Below the pieces are notes generated by a model that saw nothing but the letters and a program-made list of their open reading frames with translations, was not told where the DNA came from and did no database searches. Of a DNA stretch of 64,000 nt, positions 3,620 through 37,764 are shown piece after piece; position 1 is the stretch's first letter, and each line of letters opens with the position of its first letter. The stretch covers positions 5,470 through 69,469 of IMG/VR virus record IMGVR_UViG_3300010361_000003, one strand, 5' to 3'. The DNA is from a virus. Both the position numbers and the translations under genes were made by a program.

Positions 3620-4087
3620 ATGATGACTGACCGTTTCGGCAAAGCCATGACGCTGGCGCCGCTGCTGTGCGCGGGGTGGTTGTGGGGTCAGGCATTGGCG
3701 CAGGCCCCGGTCGGCCGCCCCTCGGGCGGCGGCAACAACCCCGAAGACCTCGACACAATCTCAGGCCCGATGACCGCGGCGACGACGCAGACCCAGGCCG
3801 GGGCCATCGCCGGAGCCACCTGCAACTTTACGATCTGCTATGTCTCAACCGCCAATCTGAATGATGGGGTGGCGCTGCATCTCTGCCCGCTGGCACCCTC
3901 CCGAGTGACGATCATCAACGGCTCGGGCAATGCGATCAAGGTCTATGGCTCCGGCACCGACACGATTGACGGCGTCGCGACAGCGACCGGGGTAACCTTG
4001 CCCGCAGCATCGGCCACCCTCAAGGCCGGAACCGCCGAGTTCACCTGCGCAGTCGGCGGCACCGCCGCCAAATGGTTCTCCCACTGA
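3620..4087 (+). CDS. Signal-peptide-bearing virion accessory protein
   Basis: ATG at 3620; hydrophobic leader ending ALA|Q; C-terminal 'IINGSGNAIKVY..GTDTIDG...KWF' fibre-type beta domain. Confidence 0.6.
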   Translation: MMTDRFGKAMTLAPLLCAGWLWGQALAQAPVGRPSGGGNNPEDLDTISGPMTAATTQTQAGAIAGATCNFTICYVSTANLNDGVALHLCPLAPSRVTIINGSGNAIKVYGSGTDTIDGVATATGVTLPAASATLKAGTAEFTCAVGGTAAKWFSH

Positions 4088-4099
4088 GGAAGCAAAGCG

Positions 4100-4597
4100 A
4101 TGATCCCCTCGCTCAAATCCCTCGTCCCCGCATCCCTGTTGGCTGCTGGTGTCATCGGCTATGCGCTGGCGCAGTATGCCCCGGCGCCGCTGGTTCCCTC
4201 GATCAATGGCGGTGCCGATCAGGTCTCCTCGCTATTGCCCGGCGGCAACCCCAGCAATCCCGGCAAGGTGGCGCTCGCCGGTGCCATCGCATCGAGCTCC
4301 AAATATCAGAACCTCGGCGTGCTGACGACCGGACAGACCATCGCCATCGCCAACGGCACCGGCACCGCCTTTGCCCAGCCCGGCGGCACACTCGCTGCTA
4401 CGACCTTGACAATGATGCCCAATCCCGCTGACGGACAGCGCTTCTGCTATGTCTCAACGCAGACCTCGACGGCGCTGACCTTTTCCGCCAATACCGGGCA
4501 GACCGTTGATGCTGGCGTGCCCACGGCCGGGGTCGCCAAGACACCGATCTGCGTGACCTATGTCGCCACCAACGCCACATGGTACGTCTCGCCTTGA
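4100..4597 (+). CDS. Signal-peptide-bearing virion accessory protein
   Basis: Leader ending ALA|Q; C-terminal 'MP.NPADGQ...TWY' fibre-type domain. Confidence 0.65.
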   Translation: MIPSLKSLVPASLLAAGVIGYALAQYAPAPLVPSINGGADQVSSLLPGGNPSNPGKVALAGAIASSSKYQNLGVLTTGQTIAIANGTGTAFAQPGGTLAATTLTMMPNPADGQRFCYVSTQTSTALTFSANTGQTVDAGVPTAGVAKTPICVTYVATNATWYVSP

Positions 4598-4896
4598 GTT
4601 TGGCTTTGCTCTTTGGTGCGGCCGGCTGTGCCGCCGAAACCTGCTCCTGTGGCGAGTTCGCTTTTGAACGGCGCAGCACCATCGGGGGCGGAGAAGATGT
4701 CATGCCGGGGACCAAGACCGAGACGACATCGAGCGGGGCCGAGCATCGGCAGCCGACCCGTATGGGGACCAAGACCGAATCGACAAGAACCGAAACCTCG
4801 ATCACCCGCCCGACCGAGACCGGCTGGTGCTCTCTGTCGATCTCGGTGCCGCCAAACCGCAACGCCTGCGCCGTATGCTGCTAGAGATCATACGCA

Positions 4897-5355
4897 GTGG
4901 CATGCGAGTTCACGGTCAATCTCAACCTCGGTGGCGGGTTCAATGTCTATCTGCCGCCGCCCCCCGAGCCGCCGACAATCGAGGGCCGGCTGACATGGTA
5001 TTTTGGTGCGATCACCATAACAGGAGTATCGCCGATGGCGACAACCTTCCCGATTGACCAGCCGCCGATGCAGGCAAAGGTTACCTGGGTCGACAAGAGC
5101 GGAAATGCCGCGCAGGTCGATGGCCCGACGAGTTGGGCCTCTTCCGACGAGACGATCGTCACTGTCACTGTTGATCCCAATGATAGCACGGCGGCGGTGG
5201 TTACCGCAGTCGGCACCATCGGGTCTGCCCAAATCACCTCGACCGCTGATGCCATAGTCGGCACCGGTGTTCAGAATATCATCGCGATCGGCGATATCAC
5301 GACGGTCGCCGGCACCGCGGTCGCCGGATCGATCACCTTTACGCCGGGGGTTTAG
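4897..5355 (+). CDS. Ig-like (Big_2-like) domain protein
   Basis: W.SSD..IVTV....VTAVG..G.A.IT motif typical of bacterial Ig-like group 2 domains on virions. Confidence 0.6.
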   Translation: MACEFTVNLNLGGGFNVYLPPPPEPPTIEGRLTWYFGAITITGVSPMATTFPIDQPPMQAKVTWVDKSGNAAQVDGPTSWASSDETIVTVTVDPNDSTAAVVTAVGTIGSAQITSTADAIVGTGVQNIIAIGDITTVAGTAVAGSITFTPGV

Positions 5356-6255: not shown

Positions 6256-6981
6256 ATGGCCCAGACAGCGCGCAGCAATGGAGGGCTGACCGAGGCCGCC
6301 AACAGCAATCTGCCCCGCGGCCCCGGCTTTATGGGCGAGGGGCATCCCATTCTCAATGGGATGCGGGATTACGCGTTTCGTCTGCGGGTGCGCTACCCGC
6401 CGCCACCGCCGCTGCCTCCGATACCGCTCTGGGTGCCGCCGCCACGGCCACCGGCACCGCCGCCTCCCCGACCGATCATCCTTGAGGTCACCTTCGTGCA
6501 GCCGAGCCCCGCAGCCATTACCTATCCTGGTTTCCAGCCGGGCCAGCTTAAAGGCAATGAGACGCTGGTGGTCCAGGCCATGGATGTCGAAGGCAACCCC
6601 AATGATCAGGCTTTCCCGACCACGGTCGCGCAGATCGCCGCCCTGGCGAGTGGCCCGGCTCCTGGTGGCGGCGCTCTTACCGGCCAACTCTACACCTCAA
6701 ATGCCTCGCCGCTGATCCTGCCGGCGGTCACCAATGTCCTGACCATCATCAACCAGGCGACCCCGGCCCCGCTGACCATCCAGCTGCCGCCAAATCCCGG
6801 CAACGATATGTATTTAGGGATCAAGGATGGCGGTCAGAACTTTGCTGCCAATCCGGTGACGGTGGTGACGACCGATGGCAGCCAGATTTTCACCGATCAC
6901 CCGATACCGACAATGACGCTGAATATCACCGGCATGGGCATCTATTTTCTCTCGCATGGCTCGCTATGGTACGCGACCTAG
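6256..6981 (+). CDS. Pro-rich virion accessory protein with fibre-type C-terminal domain
   Basis: Poly-Pro linker; C-terminal 'LP..P......IKD....A.N.V.V...G....W' module. Confidence 0.6.
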   Translation: MAQTARSNGGLTEAANSNLPRGPGFMGEGHPILNGMRDYAFRLRVRYPPPPPLPPIPLWVPPPRPPAPPPPRPIILEVTFVQPSPAAITYPGFQPGQLKGNETLVVQAMDVEGNPNDQAFPTTVAQIAALASGPAPGGGALTGQLYTSNASPLILPAVTNVLTIINQATPAPLTIQLPPNPGNDMYLGIKDGGQNFAANPVTVVTTDGSQIFTDHPIPTMTLNITGMGIYFLSHGSLWYAT

Positions 6982-7289
6982 CTGTGATCTCGGTCCTGTG
7001 GGCCACCCCGGCACTCGCGCAGGCGGTCCCTCCTGCGTGCGCGCCCAACACCCCGTATGAGTATTGCGGGCTCATTGTGCAGCGCAACAACGCTGAGAAC
7101 GATGTGATCAACGAACAAGCCACGCGCCACCGCGAGGGCGACTACTGGGCGCGCTGGGTACAGGGCGATCTTGACAAGGCGGCGTGGTGGCAGCGCTACG
7201 ACGAAGGCGTGGCGTTGAAGGAGAAAGAGGCGGCGGCGGCGGCCGAAACTCGGGCCGCCCGAGCCGCTGAGAAAGGAGCTCGACGGTGA
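6966..7289 (+). CDS. Hypothetical exported protein
   Basis: Leader ending ALA|Q, a Cys pair, helical C-terminus. Confidence 0.5.
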   Translation: MVRDLAVISVLWATPALAQAVPPACAPNTPYEYCGLIVQRNNAENDVINEQATRHREGDYWARWVQGDLDKAAWWQRYDEGVALKEKEAAAAAETRAARAAEKGARR

Positions 7290-8164
7290 GAAAGATTGCG
7301 GCTCTGCTGGCCGGGCTGTTGCTGACGCAGCCGGCGTTTGCCGCCTACTACCCGACCCCGGTCACGGTCAATGCTGGCGGCACCGGGGCCACCACCTTGA
7401 CCGCACATGGCGTGCTGCTTGGCGAGGGCACCAGTGCCGTCGTCGCGGTCACCCCGGTCGCCGATGCCGCGATCGTCTATACCGGTGGGGCCTCGGCCGA
7501 TCCGACCGCGATTGCGGTCGGCAACTGCGCCAACGCGCTGACCTATTCGACCTCGACGCACACCTTTGGTTGCGCCAACCCGACCCAGCACGCGATCGTC
7601 ATCGGCGGGGCCTCGGGTGCCGCCTTCTCGACCTTGGCCAATGTCGCTGATTCGGTCGTCGTCTTTGGTGCCACCGCTACCGATCCGACCACCGCAGGCA
7701 CATCGGCGACTGCCGATTCGGTGCTCGGATGGGCGGCTGCCGGCACCACCCCTGCACCGCTGGCGCTGCTCAGCTGCTCAAGCGGCTCCTCGGCGCTGAC
7801 CTACAATACCGGCACCCATGTTTTTGGCTGCAACTCGATCACCGGCTCGGGCTCGGTCGCGGTCAATGTGCTGACCGCAGCGGGTCCATTCACGCTCTCA
7901 AGCACCTATGACACGGTCAACATCTCGCGCATGGGCACGCCAGCGGCGGCAACCTATAACCTGCCAAGTGCGGTCACCGCAGGCAACGGCTTTCGCGGCT
8001 GTCTCAAGGACGATACGACGAATTTTGCCACCAATACCGCATCAATTAAATCGCCGACTGCAGGCAATATCGATGGCACTACTGGGTCAACCGGCATCAC
8101 CTTCACCGTGCAGCGCGGGCAGATCTGCTACGTCAGCGACGGCAGCAATTGGTTTCTAAACTGA
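7286..8164 (+). CDS. Signal-peptide-bearing fibre-like protein
   Basis: MRKIAALLAGLLLTQPAFA|AYYP; V..GGTGA fibre motif; internal repeat C...ALTY.T.TH.FGC; C-terminal 'LP....G....KD...IDG...SDGSNW'. Confidence 0.7.
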   Translation: MRKIAALLAGLLLTQPAFAAYYPTPVTVNAGGTGATTLTAHGVLLGEGTSAVVAVTPVADAAIVYTGGASADPTAIAVGNCANALTYSTSTHTFGCANPTQHAIVIGGASGAAFSTLANVADSVVVFGATATDPTTAGTSATADSVLGWAAAGTTPAPLALLSCSSGSSALTYNTGTHVFGCNSITGSGSVAVNVLTAAGPFTLSSTYDTVNISRMGTPAAATYNLPSAVTAGNGFRGCLKDDTTNFATNTASIKSPTAGNIDGTTGSTGITFTVQRGQICYVSDGSNWFLN

Positions 8165-8593
8165 ATGCGTTGGCTACTCGCCCTTGTTCTGCTGCTGCTC
8201 AGCATTGGCTCGCTGGGGCCAGCGGGCGATGCCGCCTATTACCCGGCTTCCGCCGGATGCACATTGCAGATCGCCGTCAGCCAGACCGCATCGACCGATG
8301 TTAAGACGTTCACTAATAATGGCTACATATGCCTTATCTATCTTCACTCCGACACGGCACAGTTTGTTTCGATCGTTCAGGGTACTGGCACAACCTGTGC
8401 GACGAGCACGGTGGCGTTGGTCGGGGCGACAACTGCGGCGAACGGTATGTCGTTTGCTGGCAATGCAGGTACCGTGGTTCCGATGCCAGCGGGTAGCAAT
8501 ATCAAGACCACCACCACAGCGCAGCACCTCTGCATCCTGCAGAGCGGCAGCGGCCGACTATCCGGCGTTATTAGCTATCTGGATGCACCATAA
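8165..8593 (+). CDS. Exported Cys-containing beta protein
   Basis: Hydrophobic leader, mature start AYYP as in 7286..8164; four Cys. Confidence 0.65.
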   Translation: MRWLLALVLLLLSIGSLGPAGDAAYYPASAGCTLQIAVSQTASTDVKTFTNNGYICLIYLHSDTAQFVSIVQGTGTTCATSTVALVGATTAANGMSFAGNAGTVVPMPAGSNIKTTTTAQHLCILQSGSGRLSGVISYLDAP

Positions 8594-8986
8594 ATGGCTG
8601 ATACTCCAAATACGCTTACGATTAACGTTCTAAACAACATCGCGCTGATCATGGACGCGTTGAGCGCCGCGTTTATCAATGCACAGTCGGCCAATCAGCA
8701 ATGGACCCAGGCTAATCTCGGCACCTTCGTGAGCGGGTTCACGACTGCTCCGTTGCAGGCTGACGGTCTACAGTCAACGACGGCTGACCCTAACCCGGTC
8801 GCAACAAATCCGGTACTAGCGTCGAAGTACGTGTTGCTCAGCCGTGCGCTCTCTGCCAATGACTGGAATTTAGCGATGCAGTTCATCGGGCAGTTCATCA
8901 CTTTTATGCAAGGCAACAGTGCCGTGTATGCGAGTGCCCCTGAAGTTTTCGCCAAGTTTGTCGTCCAGCCGCCAATGGCCCAATGA
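8594..8986 (+). CDS. Hypothetical protein
   Basis: 130 aa, coupled to both neighbours. Confidence 0.55.
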   Translation: MADTPNTLTINVLNNIALIMDALSAAFINAQSANQQWTQANLGTFVSGFTTAPLQADGLQSTTADPNPVATNPVLASKYVLLSRALSANDWNLAMQFIGQFITFMQGNSAVYASAPEVFAKFVVQPPMAQ

Positions 8987-9726
8987 TCTGCTGGCTCCTC
9001 ATACTATTGCTGCTGGCGACGCCGGCAAGGGCGGCGTGGGTACAAGGCAAACTCGGCGCGATCGGGGCTTCTGGGAGCACAACTGCGGCGACGGTGTCTT
9101 TCACTGCGACGGTAGGTGCTGGCAATACGGTAGTTGGAGCGATATTCGCGGGGCTCACTAACTTTGGCACGGTTACGTTCACGATTACTGATGATAAAAG
9201 CAATACGTACATTCCGGTGGCACCGAGGGTTGTTCCCTCAGGAGCCCCTGGAATGCAGATGTTTGCGCTCTACAACATACGTAATGCTCCGCAGACGATC
9301 ACAATAACTCCAAGCGTGGCGGTTGACTTTCTACAGGGAGTTGCAGACGAGTATTCTGGTACGTTAGTTATCGATGCCGCTACAGCACAATCATTAGTGG
9401 GTCCTGGCACACTCCCTAATGTCATCACTTCTGGAACCGTTACGACGAAGCAGCCGAGCGATATTGTATGGGGGATACAGGGAAACCAAAACGGAGTGTT
9501 GACACCCGCTGTTGGCACTGGCTTTACGCAACGTACGAAGAGCGTGAGTTCTGGTAGTGATTGGGGGGAGTTTAGTGAGGATCTAACGCTCACCACTCCC
9601 GGTGCGACGGCAGCGACTTACACCGATACAACGAATAGTAATGCCTCATTCCTATACTATACGATTGGCGTCATTACGTTGCGGCCGTTTTGCCAGCGCG
9701 GCGCGTTAATGGGGGTTGGCTGCTGA
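8983..9726 (+). CDS. Exported Thr-rich beta-sandwich (adhesin-like) protein
   Basis: Leader ending ARA|A; more A/T-rich codons; domain shared with the C-terminus of 32462..33892; ends LMGVGC. Confidence 0.65.
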   Translation: MICWLLILLLLATPARAAWVQGKLGAIGASGSTTAATVSFTATVGAGNTVVGAIFAGLTNFGTVTFTITDDKSNTYIPVAPRVVPSGAPGMQMFALYNIRNAPQTITITPSVAVDFLQGVADEYSGTLVIDAATAQSLVGPGTLPNVITSGTVTTKQPSDIVWGIQGNQNGVLTPAVGTGFTQRTKSVSSGSDWGEFSEDLTLTTPGATAATYTDTTNSNASFLYYTIGVITLRPFCQRGALMGVGC

Positions 9727-10524: not shown

Positions 10525-10526
10525 TC

Positions 10527-10952
10527 ATGGCTAAGTGGGTAGCCCTTGAGTTGAACGACGAAGAAAAATATGACGCCCAGATGCCGCTGCCAATGGAGCG
10601 GCCGGATTATCCCTGCGGGCTCTGTCTCTCCTTTAACAGACAGACCATCGAAAAACTGGGGATCGAGGAGCTGCCCGATGTCGGTGATTTGCTCGACATG
10701 CGCTGCTTTATGGAAGTCACTCACGTCAGCGATGGCCCGGGCGGTCAATGCTTTGAGACGCAGATCACGATGATCCTCTCGCCGGTCGAGAACGAGACCA
10801 CCGAGATGCCCGAAGCGACCGAGAGAGAGCCAGAGTATGCGATACCGGAGCATGCTCTTGAGCGTGAGGCACCGCTGATGGAGCGCCGCCCGCGCGCCGC
10901 CCAGCGGCTTTACCGCAAGAGCAGCAAATATGATCAGCTGTTGGTGAAGTGA
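10527..10952 (+). CDS. Capsid staple-like protein (epsilon15 gp10-like)
   Basis: GGAG RBS; YP.GL.LS.....EKLGI.ELP.VGD and QIT.M motifs. Confidence 0.65.
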   Translation: MAKWVALELNDEEKYDAQMPLPMERPDYPCGLCLSFNRQTIEKLGIEELPDVGDLLDMRCFMEVTHVSDGPGGQCFETQITMILSPVENETTEMPEATEREPEYAIPEHALEREAPLMERRPRAAQRLYRKSSKYDQLLVK

Positions 10953-11410: not shown

Positions 11411-14400
11411 ATGAAGCTTCTAGCGCTCTTTGCGCTTCTCCTCCCGACCGCCGCCTGGGCGCAGGGTGCGGTGCAGCAAGTCGGCCCCGGCCCGCAAGGG
11501 CACATGCCGGTCTATTCGAGCCCGGGCTTTGGCGCGACGCAGATCCAGGACATGGGTGCCGCCGGCGGTCCCGGTATCGGTGCGGCCGAGTACCTGCAGA
11601 TCAACCGCGCCACCGGGACCGGGCCGTTCAACTCGCACAACTGTATGTACGGCAATCCGCCGGGCGGCGGCACGCCGGGACCGACCAATCAAAACGGGTA
11701 TTATTTCCTCTGCCTTGACGCTGATGCCGCCACGCCGCTCGGCCCCGGCGGGCTGATCTCGTTTGGTGCGGGAGGTCTGGCGCCGCAGATCCCGCTGGTG
11801 CTCAACATCAACGGCGAGAACGCGACCTTTGGCGGGAGCGGGACGCTGCTGCCGGCGCTGCCGCAATACAAGATGTTTGTCGGCAATGCCCAGAACCAGG
11901 CCTCGACCTATGGTCCGGCCACCCTGACGCCAAACCTCTTTCAGCTCAATTTTAATGCCGTCACGCCGTCGACTTCGCTATTGGCAAACTCAAATTTCCA
12001 GTTTGTCGCTCCCGATGGTGCCACAGCCGGGATGGAACTCGACTCGTTTGGTGGCACGGGATTGTTTGAGGGCGTGTGCGCGGCGGGGACGGGGGCGGCA
12101 CCACAGGCGGTGCAAAGCGGGGCGAATTGCCTGGCCTTGCGCAGCTGGCAGTACAACGGCGCGCAATATGTCCGCAACGGCGGCATCGTCTTTGCCTCAG
12201 CCGAAAATCAAAGCCCCGGGCATGCCGGCTCGCAGATTTCGTTTTGGACGACACCCAACGGTTCCTCGACCGCCGTCGATGTCATGCACATCGGCAATCA
12301 AGGTGGTTTGGTATTGCCGGCGAGTGTGACCGGCGGTTCGCAAGGCGCCGGCACGATGAATGTCAGCGGCGGCTATTATGTCAACGGGCTGCCGGTGCCG
12401 ACACTCCTGGGCAAGAACCAAGCGCCGCTGCCGCCGCCATTTGCCGGCACCGCCTTACAGATCTCGGCTCCGGATGGGGTCAACCCCGGTCTTGATCTCT
12501 ATGCGTTTGGCGGGGTCGGAGCCTCCTTTCGCGGCGCCTGTGCCAATGGCACCGGGGCCATCCCATCGGCCTTCCCGCAGGCGGTTTGCACCCGTCTCCA
12601 AGAATTTCTCTATGACGGTGCCAATTGGATCGGGCCGCTTGCCGCGATCACAATGGGTGCCGCGGAGCAGCAATCCGTTGGGCATGGCGGCTCCTACGTT
12701 GATGTCATGACGACGCTGATCGGCACCACGACCGAGGCCGATGTGCTGCGGTTTGAGAACAATGGCGGGATCACGATCCCGAGCACGGTTACCGGAGGAA
12801 ACAAAGGTCCGGGCACGCTCAATTCGCAGGGCGGGTATTTTGTTCAAGGCAACCCGGTGCTGACGCTCAAGAGCCCGCAGAACCCGGTGTCACCGCTGCC
12901 GATCGGCGGCACCATCCTGCAGATCTCCGGTCTTGATAATGTGCAGCCGGGGATCGAGCTCAACTCGTTTGGCGTTGACGGCACCAATGCTCTCGTCGGA
13001 GCCCCCTATCGCACGACATGCGCCCGCGGCACGGGGGCTGCACCGTCAGCCTTGCTGGCAGGTGACAGCTGCGGACGCTTCAACTCGTATTTCTACAACG
13101 GTGCCAATTACGTGCTCGCGGCACGGATCACGATGTCGACATCCGAGTTGCAGACCGGCACCCACTCCGGCTCGCAAATCGACATTCAGACCACCCCAAA
13201 CGGCACGACGACACCGCAGATCGTGACCCGATTTGGCAATGATGGCGGGATTTCCGTGCCGGCGAGTGTGCTCGGCGGCGATCTCGGGTCGGGCACGATC
13301 AACGCGATGAACCTATTCATTCAGGGTCACCCGGTCCCGCCCTTGCTCGCGACCAATCCAAACCCGCTGCCGACACCGGGGACGGGTGCGATCATGCAGC
13401 TGAGCGGCCCCGATGGCACGGCGCCAACGATCGAGGTCTATGGCTTTGGCGGTGCCCCGGGATTGCGGGCATTTTGTGCCGGCGGCACCGGGGCGGCCCC
13501 GAGCGGAGTGCTGATCGGCAGTATCTGCTCGCGCTCCGATCAAGCGTTCTTTTTTAACGGTGCGAGCTATGTCGGCCCGCTGACCAACATCCGCGCGCTC
13601 GCGGCAGAGAACCAGACCTCGGGGCATGGCGGCACGGCTATCGATTTTATGACGACGCCGATCGGACAGACCACCGAGGCTGAGGTGCTCAAGCTGGAAA
13701 ACGACGGCGGGATCACGGTTCCCGGCAATGTGTCGGGCGGCGACATGGGGCCGGGCACGGTCAATGTCTCGGGCGGGTATTTTGTCAACGGCACCAGGGT
13801 TCCCTCTCTGCTCGCGCAATCCCCCGGCCCGCTGCCGCCACCGCTGACCGGAACGGTGCTGCAGTTGGGTGGTCCGGATGGCAACCTGGTCGCGATGGAG
13901 CTCGATGCCTTTGGCCCCAGCGGTGTCGCGCTGCAGGCGGTATGTGCGGGTGGCACCGCAGCGGTCCCGACCCCGGTGCTCCAAGATGCCTCCTGCGGGC
14001 GAGTGCAAAACTGGTTCTATAACGGTGTCAGCTATGTGCAGGGCGCCAAGGTGTCGGTGCATGCCGCGGAAAATCAGTCGGTCGGTCACGCTGGCTCGTA
14101 TATCCTGCTGCAGACGGTCCCGGTTGGTAGCACGACAATCCAGGATGTGGTGCGGATTCAGGCATCTGGTGGCCTCACCATGCCGCCAACCGTGGCTGGC
14201 GGCGATCCGGGCTTGGGGGCCATCAACGCGCAGGATCTTCGGATCAACGGTGTATCGGTAGCCTCAACCCGCACCACCTTTACCCCGACCCTGACCGCTG
14301 ATGGCGGCGGCACGCCGACCTATAATCTTGGCGGCACCTGGGGTCAGATTGTCGGCGCGCAGGGAAGCTATACCGTTTACGCCCGTGTAGCGCTGACCGG

Positions 14401-29158: not shown

Positions 29159-29407
29159 ATGAAATACCTTCTCCTTGTCGCGGCTTTCGCTGCCGGTCTT
29201 GGCTTGACATCGGCATTTGCCCAGTCCGATGAGCACACGCTCAAGCTGACGCAGGCCGAGCTGACGACGATCCAAATGGCATTGCAAAAAGCGCCGATGC
29301 CGATGGAACAAACCCTGCCGCTGCTCCAGAACATTTACAAACAGACCAACCCGCCAGCAGATCCGCCGGTTGCTCAGGCAAATCCGGCACCCCCGCCGCC
29401 AAAATGA
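29159..29407 (+). CDS. Small exported protein
   Basis: MKYLLLVAAFAAGLGLTSAFA|Q signal peptide; Pro-rich tail. Confidence 0.55.
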   Translation: MKYLLLVAAFAAGLGLTSAFAQSDEHTLKLTQAELTTIQMALQKAPMPMEQTLPLLQNIYKQTNPPADPPVAQANPAPPPPK

Positions 29408-29408: not shown

Positions 29409-32400
29409 ATGTCCCTTCGGCGTCTGCTGAGCGCCGTCGTCGGGAGTCTTCTTCTCGCCACCGCCGCGGCGGCTCAAAACCCGCCCGCTTCTAACAACAT
29501 CGCCACCGTTGTCGCGAGCTGCGGCAGCATTCCGACCTCGGCGAGTCCTGGTCAGAGCCACCCGCTCTACATGGACACGAACGGCAATCTCTGCGTCAGC
29601 GGGCTCGCCGGGCCGACCACTGGCGGCGGCACACCGGGCGGTCTCAATAATGCCGTGCAATTCAATAGTGCCGGGGCCTTTGGTGGCGTCGGTCCTGCAA
29701 ACAATTCGGTCCTGGTCACCAACAGCAGTGGGGCGCCGGCGGAATCGACAACCCTGCCCTCGGCAATAACGATCCCCTCACCCGTCATCACCGGGGCCTC
29801 GATCAGCGGCGGGACGATTACGAGCTTGCCCAATCCAATCAATCCGCAGGATGCCGCCACCAAGAATTATGTCGACAGCAATCTGCGCTTTCCCGCCGGT
29901 AGCAATAATTCGGTTCAGTACAACAGCGGTGGCGTGCTGGCCGGCGCCACGCCGGTAAACAATGCGGTGTTGGTCACCGGCCCCGCTGGGGTTCCGGTCA
30001 TGGCAACGGCCTTGCCACCGGCGATTGCCATTCCCTCGGCGACCATCACCGGGTCCGCGATCAGCGGTGGCACGATCACCAGTCTTCCGACCCCAACCAA
30101 CCCCGGCGATGCCGCCAACAAGAGCTATGTCGATGCTCATGCCGCCATTCCCGGCGGCGGGGCCAACGCGGTGCAGATCAACGCCGGCGGCACTCTTGGC
30201 GGGGTCGGGCCGGTGGTCAGCGCTGTGCTTGTGACCAGCAATACCGGCGTACCTTCCGAGGCGACAACCCTGCCCGCGGGCTTGACCATTCCTTCGGCGA
30301 TCATCACGAGCCCGACGATCACCGGCGGCACGCATACCGGGCTGCCGACCCCGAGCGCATCAAGCGATGCCGCGACCAAGGGCTATGTCGACTCGGCCCC
30401 GCATACGGTCGCGGGAACGACCAACGCAATTCAGTATAACAGCGGCACCGGGTTTGCCGGAGTGACGCCAGCCGCCAATGCTGTCCTGACTTCAAATGGA
30501 GCTTCGCTACCGGGGCTCGCGACGACCTTACCGTCAGCCCTGACGATCCCTTCACCGACGATCACCGGGGCGGCGATCAGCGGCGGGACGATCGTCAGTC
30601 TGTCAAACCCAACCAATCCCCAGGATGCCGCGACCAAGGCTTATGTCGACAGTTCGCTGACCGGGATCAGCCCGGGCGGGGCCACCAACGCAATTCAGTA
30701 TAAAGCTGGCACCTCGACCTTTGGCGGGCTGACGGTAGTCAACAACGCGGTCGTCGTGACCAGCGGCGCCGGCATTCCCTCGGAAGCCACGACACTGCCG
30801 ACCGGGCTGACGCTGCCCACAGCAACGATCACGGGTGCTGCGATCTCGGGGGGTACCATCATCTCGCTCCCCAACCCGACAAATGCCCAGGATGCGGCGA
30901 CCAAGGCCTATGTCGATGCCGCGATCTCCGGCGGTCTCTCACATGCGCCAGTCGCCGCCGTCGCGACCGGCGTGCTGCCAAACACCCCGGCCTATAACAA
31001 TAATACGACCGGCGTTGGGGCCACGCTGACCGCAACCTCGGGGTCGACCCTGACGATCGACGGCTACGCGGTGCAGAACGGTGATCGCGTGCTGGTCACG
31101 GGACAGGCCGCCGGATTGCAAAACGGCATCTTTACCTTTGCCAATACGAGCCCGTGGGTGTTGACGCGCGCCACCGATTTTGATCAGGCGGTTGCGGGCG
31201 AGGTCGCCCTCGGCGCCTATGTCCTGGTCCTCAACGGCACCGCCAACATCAATTCACAATGGGGCTTGGGGTCACCGACCCCCTCCTCGATCACAATCGG
31301 CACCACCGCGCTAACCTTTAACAAGTTGGCGTCGGGAGCGATAACCTACAGCGCCGACGAGACCAGTCTGCATCTGGCTGGGACTGTGTTCTCGGCCAAG
31401 CTGATCCCGGCCGCAGCGGGCGGCACCGGGGTCGTCAACAGCAACACGATCACCTTGGGCGGCAATATCGTGACGGCGGGTGCCCTGACGACCTCGGGGG
31501 CCTTTCCAATCACGCTGACGACGACCGGGGCGACGACATTGACCCTGCCGGTCAATGGTACCCTGCTGACCACGGGAAGGGTGGTCAACACCACGGCACC
31601 GCTGACCGGCGGCGGCGGCCTCGCTGCGGATCTGACGCTCGGGATCACGATCCCCAACAGCCAGCTCCTCGGCGGCAACGGGGCGAACTTCACCTCGGTG
31701 TCGCTGGGCGGCTCGCTTACCATCGTCGGTGGCACACTCAACACAACGCTGACGATCCCGAACGCCAACCTCGTCGGCGGCAATGGCTCGGCGCTGACCT
31801 CAATTACGGTCGGTAATGGTCTGAGCTTTGCCGGCGGCTCGCTCAGCAACCCGATCCCCAATGCCAGCCTGATCGGCGGCAATGGCACTTCCTATGTCGC
31901 GGTTACGGTCGGCAGCGGTCTCAACTACAACGGCGCAACAAACACGCTGACGGCCACCGGCAGCTCGATCCCGACCGCCAACCTTCTGGGCGGGAGTGCC
32001 GGAGCTTTTACATCGGTGACCGTGGTTGCTCCCGGCTTGACACTCTCGGGAGGCAATCTGAGCAATCCCATCCCCACCGCTCAACTTCTCGGCGGCGCGG
32101 CGGGGGGCTATGTCTCGATCAGCGTCGGCAGCGGACTCAATCTGACGGGGAGTTCGCTGACCGCCGTCGCCAGCCCTGACAGCGTGGCCGGTGGGATAAC
32201 GGCGACCGGGAGCACGGGAGCGGATTGTGCGGCGCTGAGTTCACAGCTGAATGTCGTTACCACCGTCTCTGCCGGGGCCGGTGTCTGTCTTCAATCCGGC
32301 TCTCCTGGTATTCACTCGATCGTGCGCAACAGTGGCGCCAATCCGCTGCTGGTTTATCCCAAGGCTGCGGATAGCGCGGCGATCAATAGCCTGGCTACTG

Positions 32401-32480
32401 GGGTAGCCATCGTGATCCAGCCCGATAATACCGGTTATTTCGAGGCTCAGAGTCTGACACAATGGTTCACCATTCCCTAA
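29409..32480 (+). CDS. Long tail-fibre-like protein with signal peptide
   Basis: MSLRRLLSAVVGSLLLATAAAA|Q; five DAA(T/N)K.YVD repeats; IDG....GDRVLV..Q...QNGI..LTRATD domain; IPN..L.GG repeats. Confidence 0.8.
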   Translation: MSLRRLLSAVVGSLLLATAAAAQNPPASNNIATVVASCGSIPTSASPGQSHPLYMDTNGNLCVSGLAGPTTGGGTPGGLNNAVQFNSAGAFGGVGPANNSVLVTNSSGAPAESTTLPSAITIPSPVITGASISGGTITSLPNPINPQDAATKNYVDSNLRFPAGSNNSVQYNSGGVLAGATPVNNAVLVTGPAGVPVMATALPPAIAIPSATITGSAISGGTITSLPTPTNPGDAANKSYVDAHAAIPGGGANAVQINAGGTLGGVGPVVSAVLVTSNTGVPSEATTLPAGLTIPSAIITSPTITGGTHTGLPTPSASSDAATKGYVDSAPHTVAGTTNAIQYNSGTGFAGVTPAANAVLTSNGASLPGLATTLPSALTIPSPTITGAAISGGTIVSLSNPTNPQDAATKAYVDSSLTGISPGGATNAIQYKAGTSTFGGLTVVNNAVVVTSGAGIPSEATTLPTGLTLPTATITGAAISGGTIISLPNPTNAQDAATKAYVDAAISGGLSHAPVAAVATGVLPNTPAYNNNTTGVGATLTATSGSTLTIDGYAVQNGDRVLVTGQAAGLQNGIFTFANTSPWVLTRATDFDQAVAGEVALGAYVLVLNGTANINSQWGLGSPTPSSITIGTTALTFNKLASGAITYSADETSLHLAGTVFSAKLIPAAAGGTGVVNSNTITLGGNIVTAGALTTSGAFPITLTTTGATTLTLPVNGTLLTTGRVVNTTAPLTGGGGLAADLTLGITIPNSQLLGGNGANFTSVSLGGSLTIVGGTLNTTLTIPNANLVGGNGSALTSITVGNGLSFAGGSLSNPIPNASLIGGNGTSYVAVTVGSGLNYNGATNTLTATGSSIPTANLLGGSAGAFTSVTVVAPGLTLSGGNLSNPIPTAQLLGGAAGGYVSISVGSGLNLTGSSLTAVASPDSVAGGITATGSTGADCAALSSQLNVVTTVSAGAGVCLQSGSPGIHSIVRNSGANPLLVYPKAADSAAINSLATGVAIVIQPDNTGYFEAQSLTQWFTIP

Positions 32481-33892
32481 GGGGCCTTGCGGCACTTCTG
32501 GTGCTGCTGCTGCTGCCGTCTGGCGCAGCGGTCGCGGCAAAAAATGTCGCGACGCGGCCCGGTATCATGCGGCTGATCACATCCGGCACCACTGACACCG
32601 CAACTCTCAGCGATATCGGCGGGACGATCTCGTGGAAAAGCCCCACCACAGGCGCCAAGACCCAGACGCTTCCCGCCTGCACATCGCCGTTTAACGGATT
32701 ATTTATCGGCATCACCGATGAGCAGGGGAACGCCGCGACTTATCCGATCTCCGTAACGGCGGGCGGCGGCAGCACGGTGGCCGGCGCTGCAGCGCCGGCC
32801 TTGATCACCTCCAATCTGGGCAGCGTCCTTCTGGGCTGCGATCAGACGGGGACCGGCAATTGGGCGATTATTAGCGGAATCTCGACGGTTGGTCAAATTA
32901 ACTGGCCCAACCAGAATTTTACGTCACCGCCCTCGGCGCTAACGGATGGTGCGTCAATTCCTGTAAATGCGTCCGGCCCTGGCAACTATACGCTGACATT
33001 GCTTGGTGGCACAACTGCCTCGCCACATACGTTGGCATGCCCGACCGGACTTGGGTCTGGTGTCCAATACCTCAGTATTGATATCACGCAGGGAGCTGGC
33101 GGCCCCTATCCGCTAGCTGCTGCCGGTGGTGGTTGCTACTTGGTGCCCAGTGGTAGCGCCATTGGCTTAACACAAACAGTTGGGGCTACGGATACAGCCA
33201 CCTTCAAGTGTATCGGCTCGACGTGCCGCCTCGGCGGCTTAGCGCTGAACCTGCTGGCCCCGGCCGCACCGAAAACCTTTATACGTGGCGTGCTAGGCCC
33301 CTATACCACTAGCGGTACCACCACCACCGCTACGTTCGCGTCGGCGGTTCCGGTTGGCTCAACGATCTTTTGTGGCCTTGTAAACTCGGGAACGGTTGCT
33401 CCCTCTGGTGTGGCGTCTGGCGCGGTGACGTTTACAAACGTTGATAGTAATACAAGCTTGAGTTCGTGGGGTCTCCGAACGTATCAGGCAGTTGTTACAT
33501 CAGCCTCCGTGACAACCGTGACCGCGACCTGGGCTGCTTCGAATACCAATATGCAAATGTTGTGTGACGCTTATGCCGGTGGCACATCGGCTGACGGCCA
33601 TGCGATTGCAGGTCAGGTCACGCCGGGGACTAGTACTGATGCTGTGTCCGCCGGTTCAATAACACCGACGAGCAGTGGTGACCTTGCGTGGGGCGTCTCT
33701 TTTAACAGTGTGGGCACGTCGGCTCAAACCCAGGGCACGGGGTTCACACTTCGGGAACAGGAGGCCACCACGACGGCGTGGGGTGGCACCAGCGAGGATA
33801 AGACGGTAGTGGGAGTAGCTGCAACACCCGTCACATTTACAAACTCCAATGTATCAGCGAACGTATATAGCGGTACGATCTTCCTGCATTGA
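32462..33892 (+). CDS. Exported multi-domain fibre/adhesin-like protein
   Basis: Hydrophobic leader; domains resembling those in 6256/7286, 34342 and 8983. Confidence 0.7.
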   Translation: MVHHSLRGLAALLVLLLLPSGAAVAAKNVATRPGIMRLITSGTTDTATLSDIGGTISWKSPTTGAKTQTLPACTSPFNGLFIGITDEQGNAATYPISVTAGGGSTVAGAAAPALITSNLGSVLLGCDQTGTGNWAIISGISTVGQINWPNQNFTSPPSALTDGASIPVNASGPGNYTLTLLGGTTASPHTLACPTGLGSGVQYLSIDITQGAGGPYPLAAAGGGCYLVPSGSAIGLTQTVGATDTATFKCIGSTCRLGGLALNLLAPAAPKTFIRGVLGPYTTSGTTTTATFASAVPVGSTIFCGLVNSGTVAPSGVASGAVTFTNVDSNTSLSSWGLRTYQAVVTSASVTTVTATWAASNTNMQMLCDAYAGGTSADGHAIAGQVTPGTSTDAVSAGSITPTSSGDLAWGVSFNSVGTSAQTQGTGFTLREQEATTTAWGGTSEDKTVVGVAATPVTFTNSNVSANVYSGTIFLH

Positions 33893-33907: not shown

Positions 33908-34330
33908 ATGCACTGGTTATTGTGGTTCTTGCTGCTGCCAGGGTTGGCGGTTGCTCAAGTGGTAGCGCCAACGGCAAGTCCTAATTTGCTCGATCAATGC
34001 GCATCCGATGTGGAGGGCGGGAAAGTGCAATTACACTGTCAGGGGGGCAATTGTTCTACCGCTGGCGCAACGGCTGACAGCATTCAATTCGTGCTGACTG
34101 GTCCTAGTAAGTCGGCGATGACATGGTGCTATAGGACGCAGGACGGGCAGTTTGGGAATGGGGTCTTGCACCGTACCGATCCAATGAACCCGCGTTCGTT
34201 CTCCACGCCGCTTGCAAGCACGCAGGTTGCTGATCCGCGGACAGGGGCGACGATCACGCAGTGGCCTTGGGCTGCGTTTGTCTGCGGGTTTACAGGTGGC
34301 GCAGACGACACACCCCCTCCAACGTGCTGA
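33908..34330 (+). CDS. Exported Cys-rich protein
   Basis: GGAGG RBS; leader ending AVA|Q; six Cys. Confidence 0.6.
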   Translation: MHWLLWFLLLPGLAVAQVVAPTASPNLLDQCASDVEGGKVQLHCQGGNCSTAGATADSIQFVLTGPSKSAMTWCYRTQDGQFGNGVLHRTDPMNPRSFSTPLASTQVADPRTGATITQWPWAAFVCGFTGGADDTPPPTC

Positions 34331-34341: not shown

Positions 34342-35088
34342 ATGTTATACGTCCTCATGTTTCTTCTGTTGTTTGTTGGGGCGGCGAACGCACAGCAGAC
34401 GTTTACCGGGAAGAATGTGGTTATCGGGCAATTCAGCTCGCCTTCCTGTCCCTATACAGGGTCCGGGACGATAACGGTTGATGCAGCGGTGTGTCCGGCT
34501 AATCCGGCGAACTGCGGCACGACTGGGCAACCGGCTTGCTATGGGGTGACACGTAACCTGCTTGTGTTGAATGGTGATGCTACTCTGGCAGTGAAGAATG
34601 CCGACCCGGCCGGCGGCCAGACATTGGTGTTCCGTATTGTTCATCAGGGGCACATGCTTACCGTTCCACCTATTTGGTTTTCGGGCGGGCAGGCACCTAC
34701 CTTTTCGACTGGTATCGATGCTCTATGGTGCATGACGGAGGATGATGCTGCACTGACGTGTAGTTCGCCGATAACGGACTTGACTGGGGTGCTGCGGTTG
34801 ACGCTTAACACGACTACAACGCCACCAGGATCGAATATCGTATCAGCGGTCGCGAACGGTCCCGGAAATCCGACAGACTGGCTGGGTATATACGCTGCCG
34901 GCAGCACAAACCAAAAGAGCTTCCTCAACTGGGCTTATTTGAACGGCAGCCAGACAGCGCCGGCTAGTGGCTTGAAATCAGCGGCTGTAACTATGAAGGT
35001 TCCAGTTACTGTGGGATCGTATGAGATGCGGTTCTTTGCAAATGATCAATTCACTGTGTTGATTTCAACGCCATTCGCAGTCAAATGA
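34342..35088 (+). CDS. Exported protein with C-terminal Ig/SKICH-like domain
   Basis: GGAG RBS; leader ANA|Q; 'DWLGIY...W.Y...G.YEMRFF' C-terminal module. Confidence 0.6.
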   Translation: MLYVLMFLLLFVGAANAQQTFTGKNVVIGQFSSPSCPYTGSGTITVDAAVCPANPANCGTTGQPACYGVTRNLLVLNGDATLAVKNADPAGGQTLVFRIVHQGHMLTVPPIWFSGGQAPTFSTGIDALWCMTEDDAALTCSSPITDLTGVLRLTLNTTTTPPGSNIVSAVANGPGNPTDWLGIYAAGSTNQKSFLNWAYLNGSQTAPASGLKSAAVTMKVPVTVGSYEMRFFANDQFTVLISTPFAVK

Positions 35089-36092
35089 TTGTACGAGTTC
35101 TTGTCGGTACACTGTTCCTGGCTACTTCTGCAGTGGCGCAGCCTTGGGGCGGTAGCGGCGGCATGATGCAATCGTTTATCCAGCCACCGCCGCCCAATAA
35201 CACGTCATGTGGATTGACTCCTGGCCCGGCTGGATTACAGGGGTTTTCAACCTGCGCTCTTAATTCCGATTTTACCCAGCCGTTGCCAACGGGTTATATC
35301 AACTGCACCATCCCCCCAAATCCAACCCCGTCAGCGACGTGGTACGTTGGAGTAGACTGGGGCAGTACTCCAGCAACCCAGATGGCGTGTGGTGTCGTGT
35401 CTCAGAAGACCGATCCCTCGTTTGGTAATCTGGCGCTGGACATGCAATACCAGTCGCAGTATGCGGGGACCAACAAGCCTGAGCTAAACACGGTAAACAT
35501 TCAAACGGTGAGCCCGAGTTATCCGACCACCGGGGGCACTTTTTTTCCGCATGGATACTTTGAGGCTGTCTATCGCTTCGTACATCCACCCACCTTTAAT
35601 AATTGGCAAACGGCTTGGTGGACCCCGGGCGGTGAGCATGGCGATTCTCATATCGAGTTCGACTTTACCGAAACGTGGTCTGATCGCCCGAATATGAACG
35701 GGAACATGATCGACGGCACCCATACTAGCCTTAACATTATCCAAATGTACGCGATCAACTACGGCACGGGGCCTGGGCAGATCGATCTCAGCCAATACCA
35801 CAAATTCGCCGTGCTGGTTACCGGGAATGGAGCGACTGAGGCTGGGTGCGCCTATGTAGACGACAAATTCCAGGGATGCGCCTCCACTCCTGTGCTGGAG
35901 GCGTTTAATCCTCATTACGTGCAGATGTGGAATTCCGTCCACTGTAGCGAGAACGTAAACGACACATCTTCATGCCTAACGGCAAACTCATTTGGAAACA
36001 CTGATGTTTGGGTCAAAAGCATCAGGATCTGGAGTTGTGTAAATTGGCAAACGGACCTTTGTCAGACGCCGCCCAAGACTTCTGGACCATAA
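35085..36092 (+). CDS. Exported GH16-like (ConA-fold) putative glycoside hydrolase
   Basis: Leader AVA|QPWGG; GYFEA, AWW, EFDFTE (E-x-D-x-x-E catalytic motif), YHKF, YVD. Confidence 0.65.
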   Translation: MIVRVLVGTLFLATSAVAQPWGGSGGMMQSFIQPPPPNNTSCGLTPGPAGLQGFSTCALNSDFTQPLPTGYINCTIPPNPTPSATWYVGVDWGSTPATQMACGVVSQKTDPSFGNLALDMQYQSQYAGTNKPELNTVNIQTVSPSYPTTGGTFFPHGYFEAVYRFVHPPTFNNWQTAWWTPGGEHGDSHIEFDFTETWSDRPNMNGNMIDGTHTSLNIIQMYAINYGTGPGQIDLSQYHKFAVLVTGNGATEAGCAYVDDKFQGCASTPVLEAFNPHYVQMWNSVHCSENVNDTSSCLTANSFGNTDVWVKSIRIWSCVNWQTDLCQTPPKTSGP

Positions 36093-36096
36093 TCGG

Positions 36097-36738
36097 GTGA
36101 TAATGCAGATAGGCATCGCGGTGTTTACCGTAGCGATCATCTGCGAGCAAGCGCATGTTCTTTCGCCGATCGTGTTGGCGTGGTCACATTCCGGCTTGCG
36201 TGCGATTGCGCTGCGCAGGCCGATTGAAACGATGTTGCTGCCGAGCGCAGCTATCGGTCTGGCGTTGGCGCTGCCCTTTATGGTGGTGTGGTGGGTTTAT
36301 TGGGTGTGGAACATTTATCATTTTGGCGCGCAGCATTACGGCGTCTCGCGAATTCTAGGCTGGCGCAGCCAGCGTTGGGCATGGGTCAGTGGAACTGCGA
36401 TCGTGATGGTCGGTGTGCCGCTGATTGTCCACGCTTGGTGGTGGCGCTGGGTCGCTTTGGTGATCATCGACTTCAACCATTGGCTGGTCGATATCGGATT
36501 ATCGAGTCGAGTAGCGCGTAATGGTTGGTTCTTTGTCGCGGTGGTTGCCGCCGCCGGCTGCATGGGTTTTCTGTGGTTGACCCCGCGCGTTGATCATATC
36601 GCAACCAGAGCGTGGCCGTGGGTTATCCAGGCGCGTTGGGGTGTTGGCATCGCGCATTTCCTTTATTCGAGATGGGTGTGGACACTCAGGGACCCTGCGG
36701 TAGGCGCAATCATTCGCCCTTGTTTGAAGATCCGATAA
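36097..36738 (+). CDS. Multi-pass membrane protein with His motifs
   Basis: About 6 hydrophobic segments, Trp-rich; YHFGAQHYG, FNHWL, AHFLY. Confidence 0.6.
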   Translation: MIMQIGIAVFTVAIICEQAHVLSPIVLAWSHSGLRAIALRRPIETMLLPSAAIGLALALPFMVVWWVYWVWNIYHFGAQHYGVSRILGWRSQRWAWVSGTAIVMVGVPLIVHAWWWRWVALVIIDFNHWLVDIGLSSRVARNGWFFVAVVAAAGCMGFLWLTPRVDHIATRAWPWVIQARWGVGIAHFLYSRWVWTLRDPAVGAIIRPCLKIR

Positions 36739-36750
36739 GCCAGGAACAGT

Positions 36751-37764
36751 GTGATGATCAAGTATCTCTTTGTTTTGTTGCTCTACCCGTTTGTGGCTGT
36801 AGCACAGCCGTGGGGTGGTGTTGCTGGGCATATGTCATCAGCGCCAATAACAATTCAACCTCCTCCGGGTGGCATCCCAGCTCCGGCCCAAGCAGCGGGA
36901 TTTACGGCGCAGATAATCAACGCCGACTTTTCTCAGCCGGCGTACTCCAACATCGCGACATGGGTTGATGGATGCGGCGGCCCGACAACTGGCGATCGCT
37001 GGGTCTATAGGTGGTGGTACACGGGGACCGCCGGACCGTGCGATCATATCCTCATGGAGACTGATCCGACGATAGGTAGACAGGTTATGCACCTTCGATT
37101 TTTGGTGAGCGACGGATCGTCACCAGCGTCAAACCTGTCTTTGTCGTTCCCCCACCCTTTTAATGTCGACAATGCCAATCACTTTCCAATGGGACTTTAT
37201 GTAGAGACCACATACCGCATTGCAGCGTCTTCGCTGGGCTCACAACCGGGTGTATTCGCAGTTTGGAGCCCCTATATGATTGGCGGTCCGGGGTATACAT
37301 ATCTCTGGGAGGCAGACCAGATAGAAGTACAGCCAAATTCGGCCAGCGGCGGCACTTGGATTTACGGGGATGGGGGTATTGAATGGGATTATACCCAACC
37401 GTCAGGGCAACAAGCAATAGGTGGTATTGGCGCCCCCCTGAGTAATTTGCGGACGGACGAAACGGTATACCATACTTATGGCATGCTATGGACTACTGAC
37501 ACGACAAGCCAGATTTGGAAGTGCCAGTATTTTGATGGGGGGGTCACGACCGGGACGGCCACTGCTTGTGGTGGCAATACCCCCGCTCATCCTGTCATCT
37601 TAACTCATCACGATCAAAACCTCGTGCTTAACTGGGGTGGGGCTCCGGGTGGTGGGTCTCTGACTAGTAATGTAGATATTTATATTCAGTCAGTAACAGC
37701 ATGGGTGTGCCCAAACGGGTTTGGAACATCAACTCAATGCACAGGACCTATCATAACTCATTAG
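36751..37764 (+). CDS. Exported GH16-like putative glycoside hydrolase 2
   Basis: Leader AVA|QPWGG; YVE, WEADQIE (E-x-D-x-x-E), YHTYGMLW, YFDG. Confidence 0.65.
   Translation: MMIKYLFVLLLYPFVAVAQPWGGVAGHMSSAPITIQPPPGGIPAPAQAAGFTAQIINADFSQPAYSNIATWVDGCGGPTTGDRWVYRWWYTGTAGPCDHILMETDPTIGRQVMHLRFLVSDGSSPASNLSLSFPHPFNVDNANHFPMGLYVETTYRIAASSLGSQPGVFAVWSPYMIGGPGYTYLWEADQIEVQPNSASGGTWIYGDGGIEWDYTQPSGQQAIGGIGAPLSNLRTDETVYHTYGMLWTTDTTSQIWKCQYFDGGVTTGTATACGGNTPAHPVILTHHDQNLVLNWGGAPGGGSLTSNVDIYIQSVTAWVCPNGFGTSTQCTGPIITH

Follow-up and report, generated by a model that had tools for sequence, protein, structure and literature searches.

In the textbook account, the assembly of tailed phages is entirely cytoplasmic. 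The 64,000-nucleotide stretch of viral DNA analysed here (the window) covers bases 5470-69469 of the 69,469-bp IMG/VR record IMGVR_UViG_3300010361_000003, which has a 123-bp terminal direct repeat and is rated 100% complete. Its virion module encodes fifteen proteins with predicted leaders for export through the Sec system, two of which, referred to here as SP-A and SP-B, stand at fixed positions across the relatives of this phage. The fibre-like proteins of the phage and of its uncultured relatives probably mature outside the cytoplasm.

The closest characterised proteins of the SP-B layout are the MAT fibres of Bdellovibrio bacteriovorus, that is, Bd1334, Bd2439, and 19 others, which are described as the products of chromosomal genes displayed on the surface of the predator (PMC10769870). 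These fibres are built from a leader, a conserved beta-rich N-domain of ~130 residues, and a mosaic fibre, and the same report states that the N-domain has no homologue in the PDB, and presumes that it binds an element of the surface (PMC10769870). The order of leader, N-domain, and fibre is the same in SP-B, the MAT N-domain being compared by its description only. The fibres that podophages attach at the junction of adaptor and nozzle, such as those of the T7 gp17 type and of LME-1, Bbp9 of BPP-1, p25 of phiV10, and gp17 of Ab31, resemble both SP-A and SP-B in being encoded by a gene of the virion module, with a conserved N-terminus and a variable C-terminus. The known podophage fibres are assembled in the cytoplasm, however, and those of BPP-1, phiV10, and Ab31 are leaderless.

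The receptor-binding adsorption protein of filamentous phages, pIII, has a Sec leader, acquires its disulfides on folding in the periplasm, and joins the particle outside the cytoplasm. In these phages, the whole particle is assembled at the membrane, without lysis, whereas the phage of the window has leaderless capsid, tail-hub, and ejection proteins, together with an endolysin. The late regions of phages also encode leader-bearing proteins, interspersed with the tail and fibre genes or next to them, as in the case of Llp of T5 and Lom and Bor of lambda, which are small, sporadic, and not fibre-like, whereas the two lineage-universal families described here reach 1600 residues. The literature searched, which did not extend to supplements, contains no description of leader-bearing tail fibres in tailed phages. 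The accessible parts of three reports (PMC3556154, PMC10747016, and PMC3765740) deal with lysis proteins only, and the corresponding part of a fourth (10.64898/2026.10.24.761521) with huge phages that encode leader-bearing sortase substrates and outer-membrane proteins, rather than fibres.

Three leader-bearing proteins of the window are central to the comparison with these systems:

4100..4597, + strand: SP-A, with a leader, a conserved mature N-terminal motif of ~35 residues, and a small domain with two conserved cysteines (Cys)
11411..14665, + strand: SP-B, with a 17-residue leader, an N-domain of ~125 residues, five repeats of ~155 residues, and a C-terminal domain
29409..32480, + strand: fibre protein with a leader followed by 1001 residues, a Cys pair near either end, five shaft repeats of ~100 residues, and a central domain

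The leaders were sought as a basic n-region, a hydrophobic core of ~7-15 residues, and small residues at positions -3 and -1. The original prediction had listed 14 open reading frames (ORFs) with leaders of this type, and all 14 are recognised by eye, with an n-region that is short and mostly basic, a core of 9-15 residues, and an A-x-A-like site. A loose rule flags 12 of them and a strict rule 10, and the two that are missed by the loose rule (3620 and 6966) are lost because of a single Asp in the n-region. Among the remaining 32 of the 46 ORFs, the loose rule flags three (4579-4884, 20688-21239, and 36097-36738), the first of which is a fifteenth, lipoprotein-like candidate, absent from the earlier list, and the second a T7 gp14-like internal virion protein with the hydrophobic N-terminus that is usual for it. 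As had been claimed, leaders are absent, by the loose rule, from the capsid protein, the four adaptors, the nozzle, and the large ejection proteins, and Gln is the predicted first mature residue in most of the listed proteins (9-10 of 14).

The abundance of leaders sets this genome apart from three related cultured phages. When the strict rule is applied to greedy ORF calls, it flags 16 of 96 ORFs here, but only 2 of 36 in BPP-1, 3 of 49 in phiV10, and 1 of 57 in Ab31. The 16 comprise 10 of the 14 listed proteins, the candidate at 4579, the gp14-like protein, and four ORFs outside the module, whereas the flags in the three reference phages are spanins, membrane proteins, or shadow ORFs, with none in their capsid, tail, or fibre genes.

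The mature leader proteins also carry a cysteine signature. They contain 81 Cys in 4634 residues (1.75%), against 36 in 6882 (0.52%) in the 22 leaderless proteins of the module (odds ratio 3.4, Fisher p = 2e-10). The number of Cys is even in all 14 of the non-lipoprotein mature chains, including one with zero, while the leaderless proteins are divided among seven with none, five with an even number, and ten with an odd number. The lipoprotein candidate has seven Cys, including the one that would be attached to lipid. The Cys pairs noted earlier, with two Cys in each repeat of SP-B, are found in all five of the ~155-residue repeats, where they lie 16-17 residues apart, and further pairs are located in the N-domain and the C-terminal domain. 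Even numbers prevail in the relatives as well, being found in 134 of 142 SP-B proteins and 57 of 58 parsed SP-A proteins.

The conservation of the leaders in homologues, a check that the original prediction had called for, was examined for six of the 14 listed proteins. Leaders were flagged in 118 of the best 120 SP-A relatives, in at least 138 of 150 listed SP-B relatives, most of the other 12 showing a leader behind a longer called N-terminus, and in the only outside homologue of 35085. The tripartite leader defines the substrates of Sec, and structural disulfides form in the periplasm, not in the cytoplasm; given these two properties, and the maintenance of the leaders under selection in hundreds of homologues, the leader proteins are very likely to be exported, cleaved, and folded with disulfides. 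The earlier proposal that the appendages are exported, folded oxidatively in the periplasm, and joined to the virion around lysis is supported in its first two steps by the leaders, their conservation, and the cysteines. Of the two fates that it had offered, joining to the virion or decoration of the host surface, the evidence on the two core families leans to the former.

The hydrophobic N-termini might, alternatively, not be export signals, either because the true starts lie downstream or because these segments act within the particle, as the N-terminus of the gp14-like internal protein shows that a virion protein may have. The public gene call for 35085 (P0391, 236 aa) would agree with this, given that it begins 99 codons downstream, and thus without the leader. 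This explanation is highly improbable, however, as the full basic, hydrophobic, and A-x-A layout is kept in hundreds of homologues despite the drift of their sequences, with the conserved mature sequence starting directly after the predicted cleavage site, and the even numbers of Cys point to an oxidising compartment. No conserved internal start was found in the SP-B alignments. In the window, the start sites are credible and closely coupled to the upstream genes, contrary to the possibility of downstream starts that the original prediction had raised: the gap to the upstream gene ranges from -19 to +62 bp, and is no more than 15 bp in 14 of 15 cases, and several of the genes are preceded by Shine-Dalgarno-like purine runs. 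Automated gene calls can conceal leaders, as in P0391.

By its sequence, SP-B is a core family of the lineage. Among 1.84 billion representatives, its profile recovered 1037 at E <= 1e-3, 505 of which pass E <= 1e-30. The 150 that were listed span 208-1599 aa, and nearly all of them have the start of the domain no later than about residue 25 (at 28-74 in three); the members combine a conserved N-domain with a hypervariable fibre. Two features are invariant in the alignments, namely, an Ala-Gln where cleavage is predicted and a Cys pair in the N-domain. The gene sits between the gp10-like gene, which is upstream of SP-B in the relatives too, and the adaptors. The first adaptor paralogue is the next gene in about 12 of the 18 loci whose downstream sequence extends to at least 1 kb (a hand tally); two others have one intervening ORF, L001, L011, and L030 differ, and L016 has a second SP-B paralogue next. 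In the complete relative G407, there are two genes of the SP-B type. One precedes the adaptors, while the other (852 aa, 12 Cys) follows the ejection proteins and lies directly before the endolysin, which is the classical slot of the podophage fibre.

SP-A is likewise assigned to the core of the lineage. Its profile search recovered 360 proteins, and those flagged as leader-bearing among the best 120 all have 6-8 or more Cys. The N-terminal motif is followed either by a domain of ~100 residues with two conserved Cys or by one of ~390 residues, and the gene is placed after the capsid-proximal genes in the relatives. The Atlas neighbours of the long form (P0122, from the relative L017) are all viral, and its stored model may resemble clusters in which CBM_4_9-bearing proteins and proteins of the lambda Stf type occur (template modelling score ~0.7), which is a lead only. 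A profile comparison of P0010 with SP-A gave a probability of just 0.8%. ARAGORN calls a 96-nt tRNA-Ala(GGC) at 4289-4384, on the - strand, within the coding sequence of SP-A, which is probably a false call.

The relatives were drawn from several sources. Capsid-guided scans recovered 13 IMG/VR loci with 62-91% capsid identity, while four other loci, in genome collections, belong to the chromosome of Rhizobium sp. BK313 and to metagenome-assembled genomes of Acetobacteraceae, Hyphomicrobiales, and Salinisphaerales. A further 16 IMG/VR loci, with guanine-cytosine (GC) contents of 0.40-0.65, retain the leader of SP-B, and the leaders are retained across the relatives over a GC range of 0.40-0.68. 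In three host genomes, the SP-B domain is confined to the prophage, and of 401 genomes sampled from the same class, only one has it, which is the genome of the query itself. In the Rhizobium sp. BK313 prophage, SP-B (767 aa) is the sole large fibre-like protein.

The mechanism favoured here would begin with the passage of fifteen late-operon proteins, unfolded, through Sec into the periplasm, where they would be cleaved and would fold with disulfides, 14 of the leaders being of the predicted cleavable Sec type I and one of the lipoprotein type. SP-A and SP-B would be the receptor-binding fibres, which combine a conserved module at the N-terminus with a fibre-like or lectin-like C-terminal part that is hypervariable. 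They would mature in the periplasm and, as is assumed of fibres, trimerise there. The holin and endolysin would then merge the cytoplasm with the periplasm, permitting the fibres to dock, at or just after lysis, on the tail hub formed by the three or four paralogous adaptors and the nozzle. The other leader proteins would be accessory exported proteins, either additional fibres or adhesins, or enzymes.

The assignment of SP-A and SP-B to the virion is favoured by their adaptor-adjacent position, their universality, their conserved-N and variable-C layout, the lack of any other fibre, with no leaderless one in this genome or in the Rhizobium prophage, and the lack of a recognised integrase. If they are receptor-binding fibres, the particle must be met after the holin and endolysin step, and the tailspikes of P22, which in classical experiments add to finished heads in vitro, make such late docking physically plausible. 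The docking on the virion and its timing are speculative, and the complete reading, of exported receptor-binding fibres that dock on the virion at or after lysis, is put forward tentatively, at somewhat short of even chances. A slightly bolder version is a little more doubtful, in which the lineage would have two compartments, with capsid, tail hub, and ejection proteins made in the cytoplasm and Sec-exported, disulfide-bonded fibres attached at lysis, and in which the N-domain of SP-B would be a new tail-docking module, and maybe the source or the sister of the MAT anchor domain.

A number of points weigh against this reading. Virions are assembled in the cytoplasm and, to our knowledge, no tailed phage adds exported parts to its particles, so that the prior for such a step is low. 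The leader calls come from loose and strict rules of our own and from inspection by eye, rather than from SignalP. An AlphaFold2 model of the mature SP-B N-domain, built from 42 sequences as a monomer of what may be an intertwined trimer, is beta-rich, with seven strands (predicted local distance difference test 70, predicted template modelling score 0.55); Foldseek matched it to nothing in the PDB or BFVD at E <= 1e-3, and VIA-align gave a best Z of only 3.3 against 48,161 chains, so that nothing links this domain structurally to the tail hub. When compared by hhalign, neither N-terminal module, of SP-A or of SP-B, resembles the anchor of the canonical fibres (probability <1%). Among the leader proteins of the window, the SP-B domain is found only in 11411 and the SP-A motif only in 4100, which leaves the others without a recognisable anchor, and several of them as orphans. 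Receptor binding could also fall to the nozzle itself, which is larger in some of the relatives, and a leaderless family (2935-3618) combines a conserved N-terminus with a variable C-terminus as well. Finally, the nearest characterised proteins of the SP-B layout, the MAT fibres, are found on the surface of the cell, and not on a virion (PMC10769870).

This last point makes surface display a serious rival, in which the N-domain would anchor the exported fibres to an element of the envelope of the infected cell, as is presumed of the MAT fibres, and they would never become part of the virion. Such fibres could hold an infected cell fast to other hosts nearby, or alter its surface late in the infection. 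The shared layout and the homology of the fibre body favour this view, given that the repeats of SP-B match, in profile searches of the PDB, the crystallised parts of Bd1334 (8OML, 2e-10; 8ON4, 2.2e-9) and Bd2439 (8OL4, 8e-4), so that SP-B has the mosaic type of fibre body found in MAT. The modelled N-domain is also beta-rich and without a relative in the PDB, as is stated of its MAT counterpart (PMC10769870). There are also differences. According to the same report, the MAT fibres are encoded by bacterial chromosomes for display on the cell's own surface, whereas SP-B is one core gene in the virion operon of a phage. It was detected solely in the DNA of phages or prophages, and not in the remaining 400 genomes that were sampled from the class. 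The Cys pair of the phage repeats is aligned with positions that are not Cys in Bd1334, and Pfam finds no S74 chaperone domain in the window. SP-A and SP-B are, in addition, core genes of the virion operon, adjoining the adaptors, with no other receptor-binding protein in evidence, and the lack of a recognised integrase would limit any display to the end of the lytic cycle. Surface display is put at around one chance in four.

The N-domain of SP-B was also considered as a diverged copy of the protein's own repeats, which was rejected at a profile probability of 0.3%; a local hidden Markov model run paired its positions 62-111 with residues 215-264, with no separate score.

The docking of the exported fibres on the virion, as favoured here, would add a post-lysis or periplasmic step to virion assembly, while their display on the cell would mean that the dying host is dressed with adhesive fibres, and either outcome of an exported, disulfide-bonded fibre family in a core virion operon would be new biology. 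The MAT adhesins of Bdellovibrio gain a plausible phage counterpart built from the same three parts, and receptor-binding proteins of this type may require periplasmic expression in order to fold. Direct tests are possible, given that a prophage relative resides in Rhizobium sp. BK313, a harmless bacterium from soil that is in culture.

The third large protein, 29409, is the sole protein of the window that matches tail-fibre PHROGs, and it also matches the tail and head-decoration families. Its shaft repeats match the tail fibre p25 of phiV10 (BLAST), and its residues 486-652, which correspond to a domain of ~165 residues, match the 18-copy "orf22" chain of 9EFK (E 6.5e-13). This structure is the portal-tail complex of the Legionella phage LME-1, in which, as reported, the fibres form six trimers that contact the adaptor and the nozzle (PMC12407071); the chain is taken to be the tail fibre from its copy number of 18, its name being absent from the text of that report. 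Leaders are found in 18 of 120 homologues of 29409, including most of the closest, and these homologues match its other domains. The canonical fibres (BPP-1 Bbp9, phiV10 p25, and Ab31 gp17) were searched by BLAST against all of the proteins of the window, and matched only these shaft repeats, so that the canonical anchor, which forms their shared N-terminus, is absent from the window. The search of 50,697 phage records by tblastn with SP-A, the N-terminus of SP-B, and 29409 yielded no match, and hence no cultured relative.

The remaining leader proteins form two blocks, the second of which includes a membrane protein:

3620..4087, + strand: leader protein, 155 aa, four mature Cys; no Pfam, PHROGs, NCBIfam, or PADLOC family
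4579..4884, + strand: lipoprotein-like leader protein, 101 aa, with a small-small-Gly-Cys box at the end of the hydrophobic leader
6966..7289, + strand: leader protein, 107 aa, two Cys; its L001 homologue has a hydrophobic leader too
7286..8164, + strand: leader protein, 292 aa, six Cys; its L001 homologue is leader-bearing
8165..8593, + strand: leader protein, 142 aa, four Cys
8983..9726, + strand: leader protein, 247 aa; 32462-33892 has a paralogous C-terminal half (30% over 193 residues, E 1.4e-13)
29159..29407, + strand: leader protein, 82 aa, zero Cys
32462..33892, + strand: leader protein, 476 aa, eight Cys; no PDB, Pfam, or IMG/VR relative found
33908..34330, + strand: leader protein, 140 aa, six Cys
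34342..35088, + strand: leader protein, 248 aa, six Cys; no IMG/VR relative in a pattern scan
35085..36092, + strand: leader protein, 335 aa, ten Cys; paralogue of 36751-37764
36097..36738, + strand: Trp-rich polytopic membrane protein with four hydrophobic spans (hydropathy scan), inside the leader-protein block; no family found
36751..37764, + strand: leader protein, 337 aa, six Cys; paralogue of 35085-36092

The description of the whole set as fibre-like or adhesin-like holds for about four proteins (4100, 7286, 11411, and 29409), and was overstated for the rest. In 7286, residues 22-134 are 41% identical to residues 144-249 of the L011 protein 9878-12001, that is, to a fibre segment of an SP-B-type protein, and its C-terminal domain also occurs in the leaderless 6256-6981. 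For about 11 leader proteins outside the core families, the sequences support predicted export and nothing further. Sequence searches of the PDB with the SP-A alignment (A2), alignment A5, 32462, 35085, and 7286 found nothing, as did pattern scans of IMG/VR for 32462, 34342, and 7286.

These proteins bring two other explanations into play. One is that the exported proteins are soluble helpers, that is, periplasmic or released polysaccharide depolymerases, or decoys that mask the receptor, rather than parts of the virion. The lipoprotein Llp of T5 acts in the latter manner, masking the receptor and keeping the progeny off the debris. Most of the small, Cys-rich leader proteins do lack an anchor motif and are poorly conserved, as accessory factors would be, and one leader (4579-4884) is of the lipoprotein type. 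For some of the small orphans, helper functions of this kind are likely. As an account of the set, however, this explanation is improbable, because it leaves the universality, synteny, and fibre build of SP-A and SP-B unexplained, and no enzyme family was recovered by Pfam (even at E <= 5), NCBIfam (0 of 18), PADLOC (0 of 16), or the PDB sequence search.

The other explanation is that of the lysogenic-conversion morons, in which a prophage would express proteins, secreted or of the outer membrane, that alter the lysogen, as do Lom and Bor of lambda. Some relatives do exist as prophages, one of them in the Rhizobium sp. BK313 chromosome, and a strict scan finds three to five leader proteins, some of them false, in the complete relatives G406 and G407, compared with 15 in the window, which resembles accessory gain and suggests that most of the set in the window is an accessory expansion. 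This explanation is nevertheless given very little credence. No tyrosine or serine recombinase (PF00589, PF00239), integrase, or resolvase was recognised in the complete genome, and the phage of the window is probably virulent. Promoter-like or terminator-like sites show no excess over chance at the leader genes, whose starts overlap or abut the upstream genes instead, and SP-A and SP-B are core rather than sporadic. The rejection is less firm for the orphan leader proteins.

The proteins 35085 and 36751 share with P0392, the outside homologue of the former (50% identical and leader-bearing), an acidic E-x-D-x-T-E/Q stretch that follows a Y-x-E-x-x-Y-R motif. This stretch is reminiscent of glycoside hydrolase family 16, a resemblance that would suit the soluble helpers, and for which Pfam gave no match at E <= 5. 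In the Rhizobium prophage, the ejection proteins are followed by a cargo island on the - strand, the endolysin, and a lipoprotein spanin. The island (L018/L019, ~32-39 kb in joined coordinates) has a lower GC content at third codon positions (GC3), contains ORFs of 837, 606, 397, and 311 aa, and occupies the place of the window's second leader-protein block.

The surrounding genes correspond, by homology, to an epsilon15/BPP-1-type podophage. From position 1 to ~39,000, all of the credible genes are on the + strand and closely packed:

562..1608, + strand: major capsid protein, leaderless; PF20911 GP7 (E 8.8e-90), ~40% identity to the capsids of phiV10 and Pseudomonas podophages
10527..10952, + strand: epsilon15 gp10-like small capsid protein, leaderless; phrog_825 and a weak PF21628, matching p13 of phiV10
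14647..17665, + strand: four paralogous tail adaptors (tubular tail A-like) and a 68-aa transmembrane ORF, leaderless; phrog_394 four times
17666..20239, + strand: nozzle (tubular tail B-like), leaderless; phrog_376 (E 5e-133), ~30% identity to Bbp13 of BPP-1
20095..28543, + strand: internal virion and ejection proteins, without cleavable leaders; phrog_308, phrog_418/T7_gp14, and phrog_684
38211..38825, + strand: endolysin (GH108 and PG_binding_3), with small membrane proteins on both sides; Pfam and PHROGs

The closest cultured phages (phiV10, Pseudomonas podophages, BPP-1, and Vibrio and Pelagibacter podophages) are just 30-40% identical in the capsid and nozzle, and the relatives are linked mostly to the Alphaproteobacteria. 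Pfam and PHROGs also assign a scaffold/protease fragment and, further downstream, recombination and replication genes and the terminase. The endolysin marks canonical lysis from within. In the ejection region, the protein 25937-28543 matches p20 of phiV10, and no match to it was found in five related records.

The adaptors are homologous to Bbp14 of BPP-1 and p14 of phiV10, and their mutual paralogy is confirmed. There are four in tandem in the window, compared with three in the relatives and one in BPP-1, phiV10, and Ab31, and the surplus adaptor rings could provide docking sites for several types of fibre. A dual-adaptor layout is reported for other Rhizobiales podophages, which derive from different capsid lineages (PMC10386132). 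The nozzle has 857 aa in the window and 1064-1377 aa in relatives (L014 19563-22757, L034 10484-14386, and G407 40858-44991), where an inserted or extended segment could play a part in recognising the host.

The leaderless family represented by 2935-3618, which is also present, in duplicate, in L007 (11241-13063), is placed between the capsid-proximal genes and SP-A. Its members have 134-305 aa, with a Gly/Pro-rich conserved N-terminus and variable C-termini, and may represent a head fibre or a second type of appendage. The gene that follows the capsid gene (1611-2156) resembles, by eye, the N-terminus of the cement protein Bbp16 of BPP-1 and p11 of phiV10, for which BLAST gave no link. No tandem DNA repeats were found in the sequence, and a soil metagenome is the only sequencing run listed with this DNA, and possibly its source, with no RNA run listed. 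In the early or recombination region, the ORF 43577-43996, on the - strand, has, from an internal start, a convincing leader that ends in A-Q-A.

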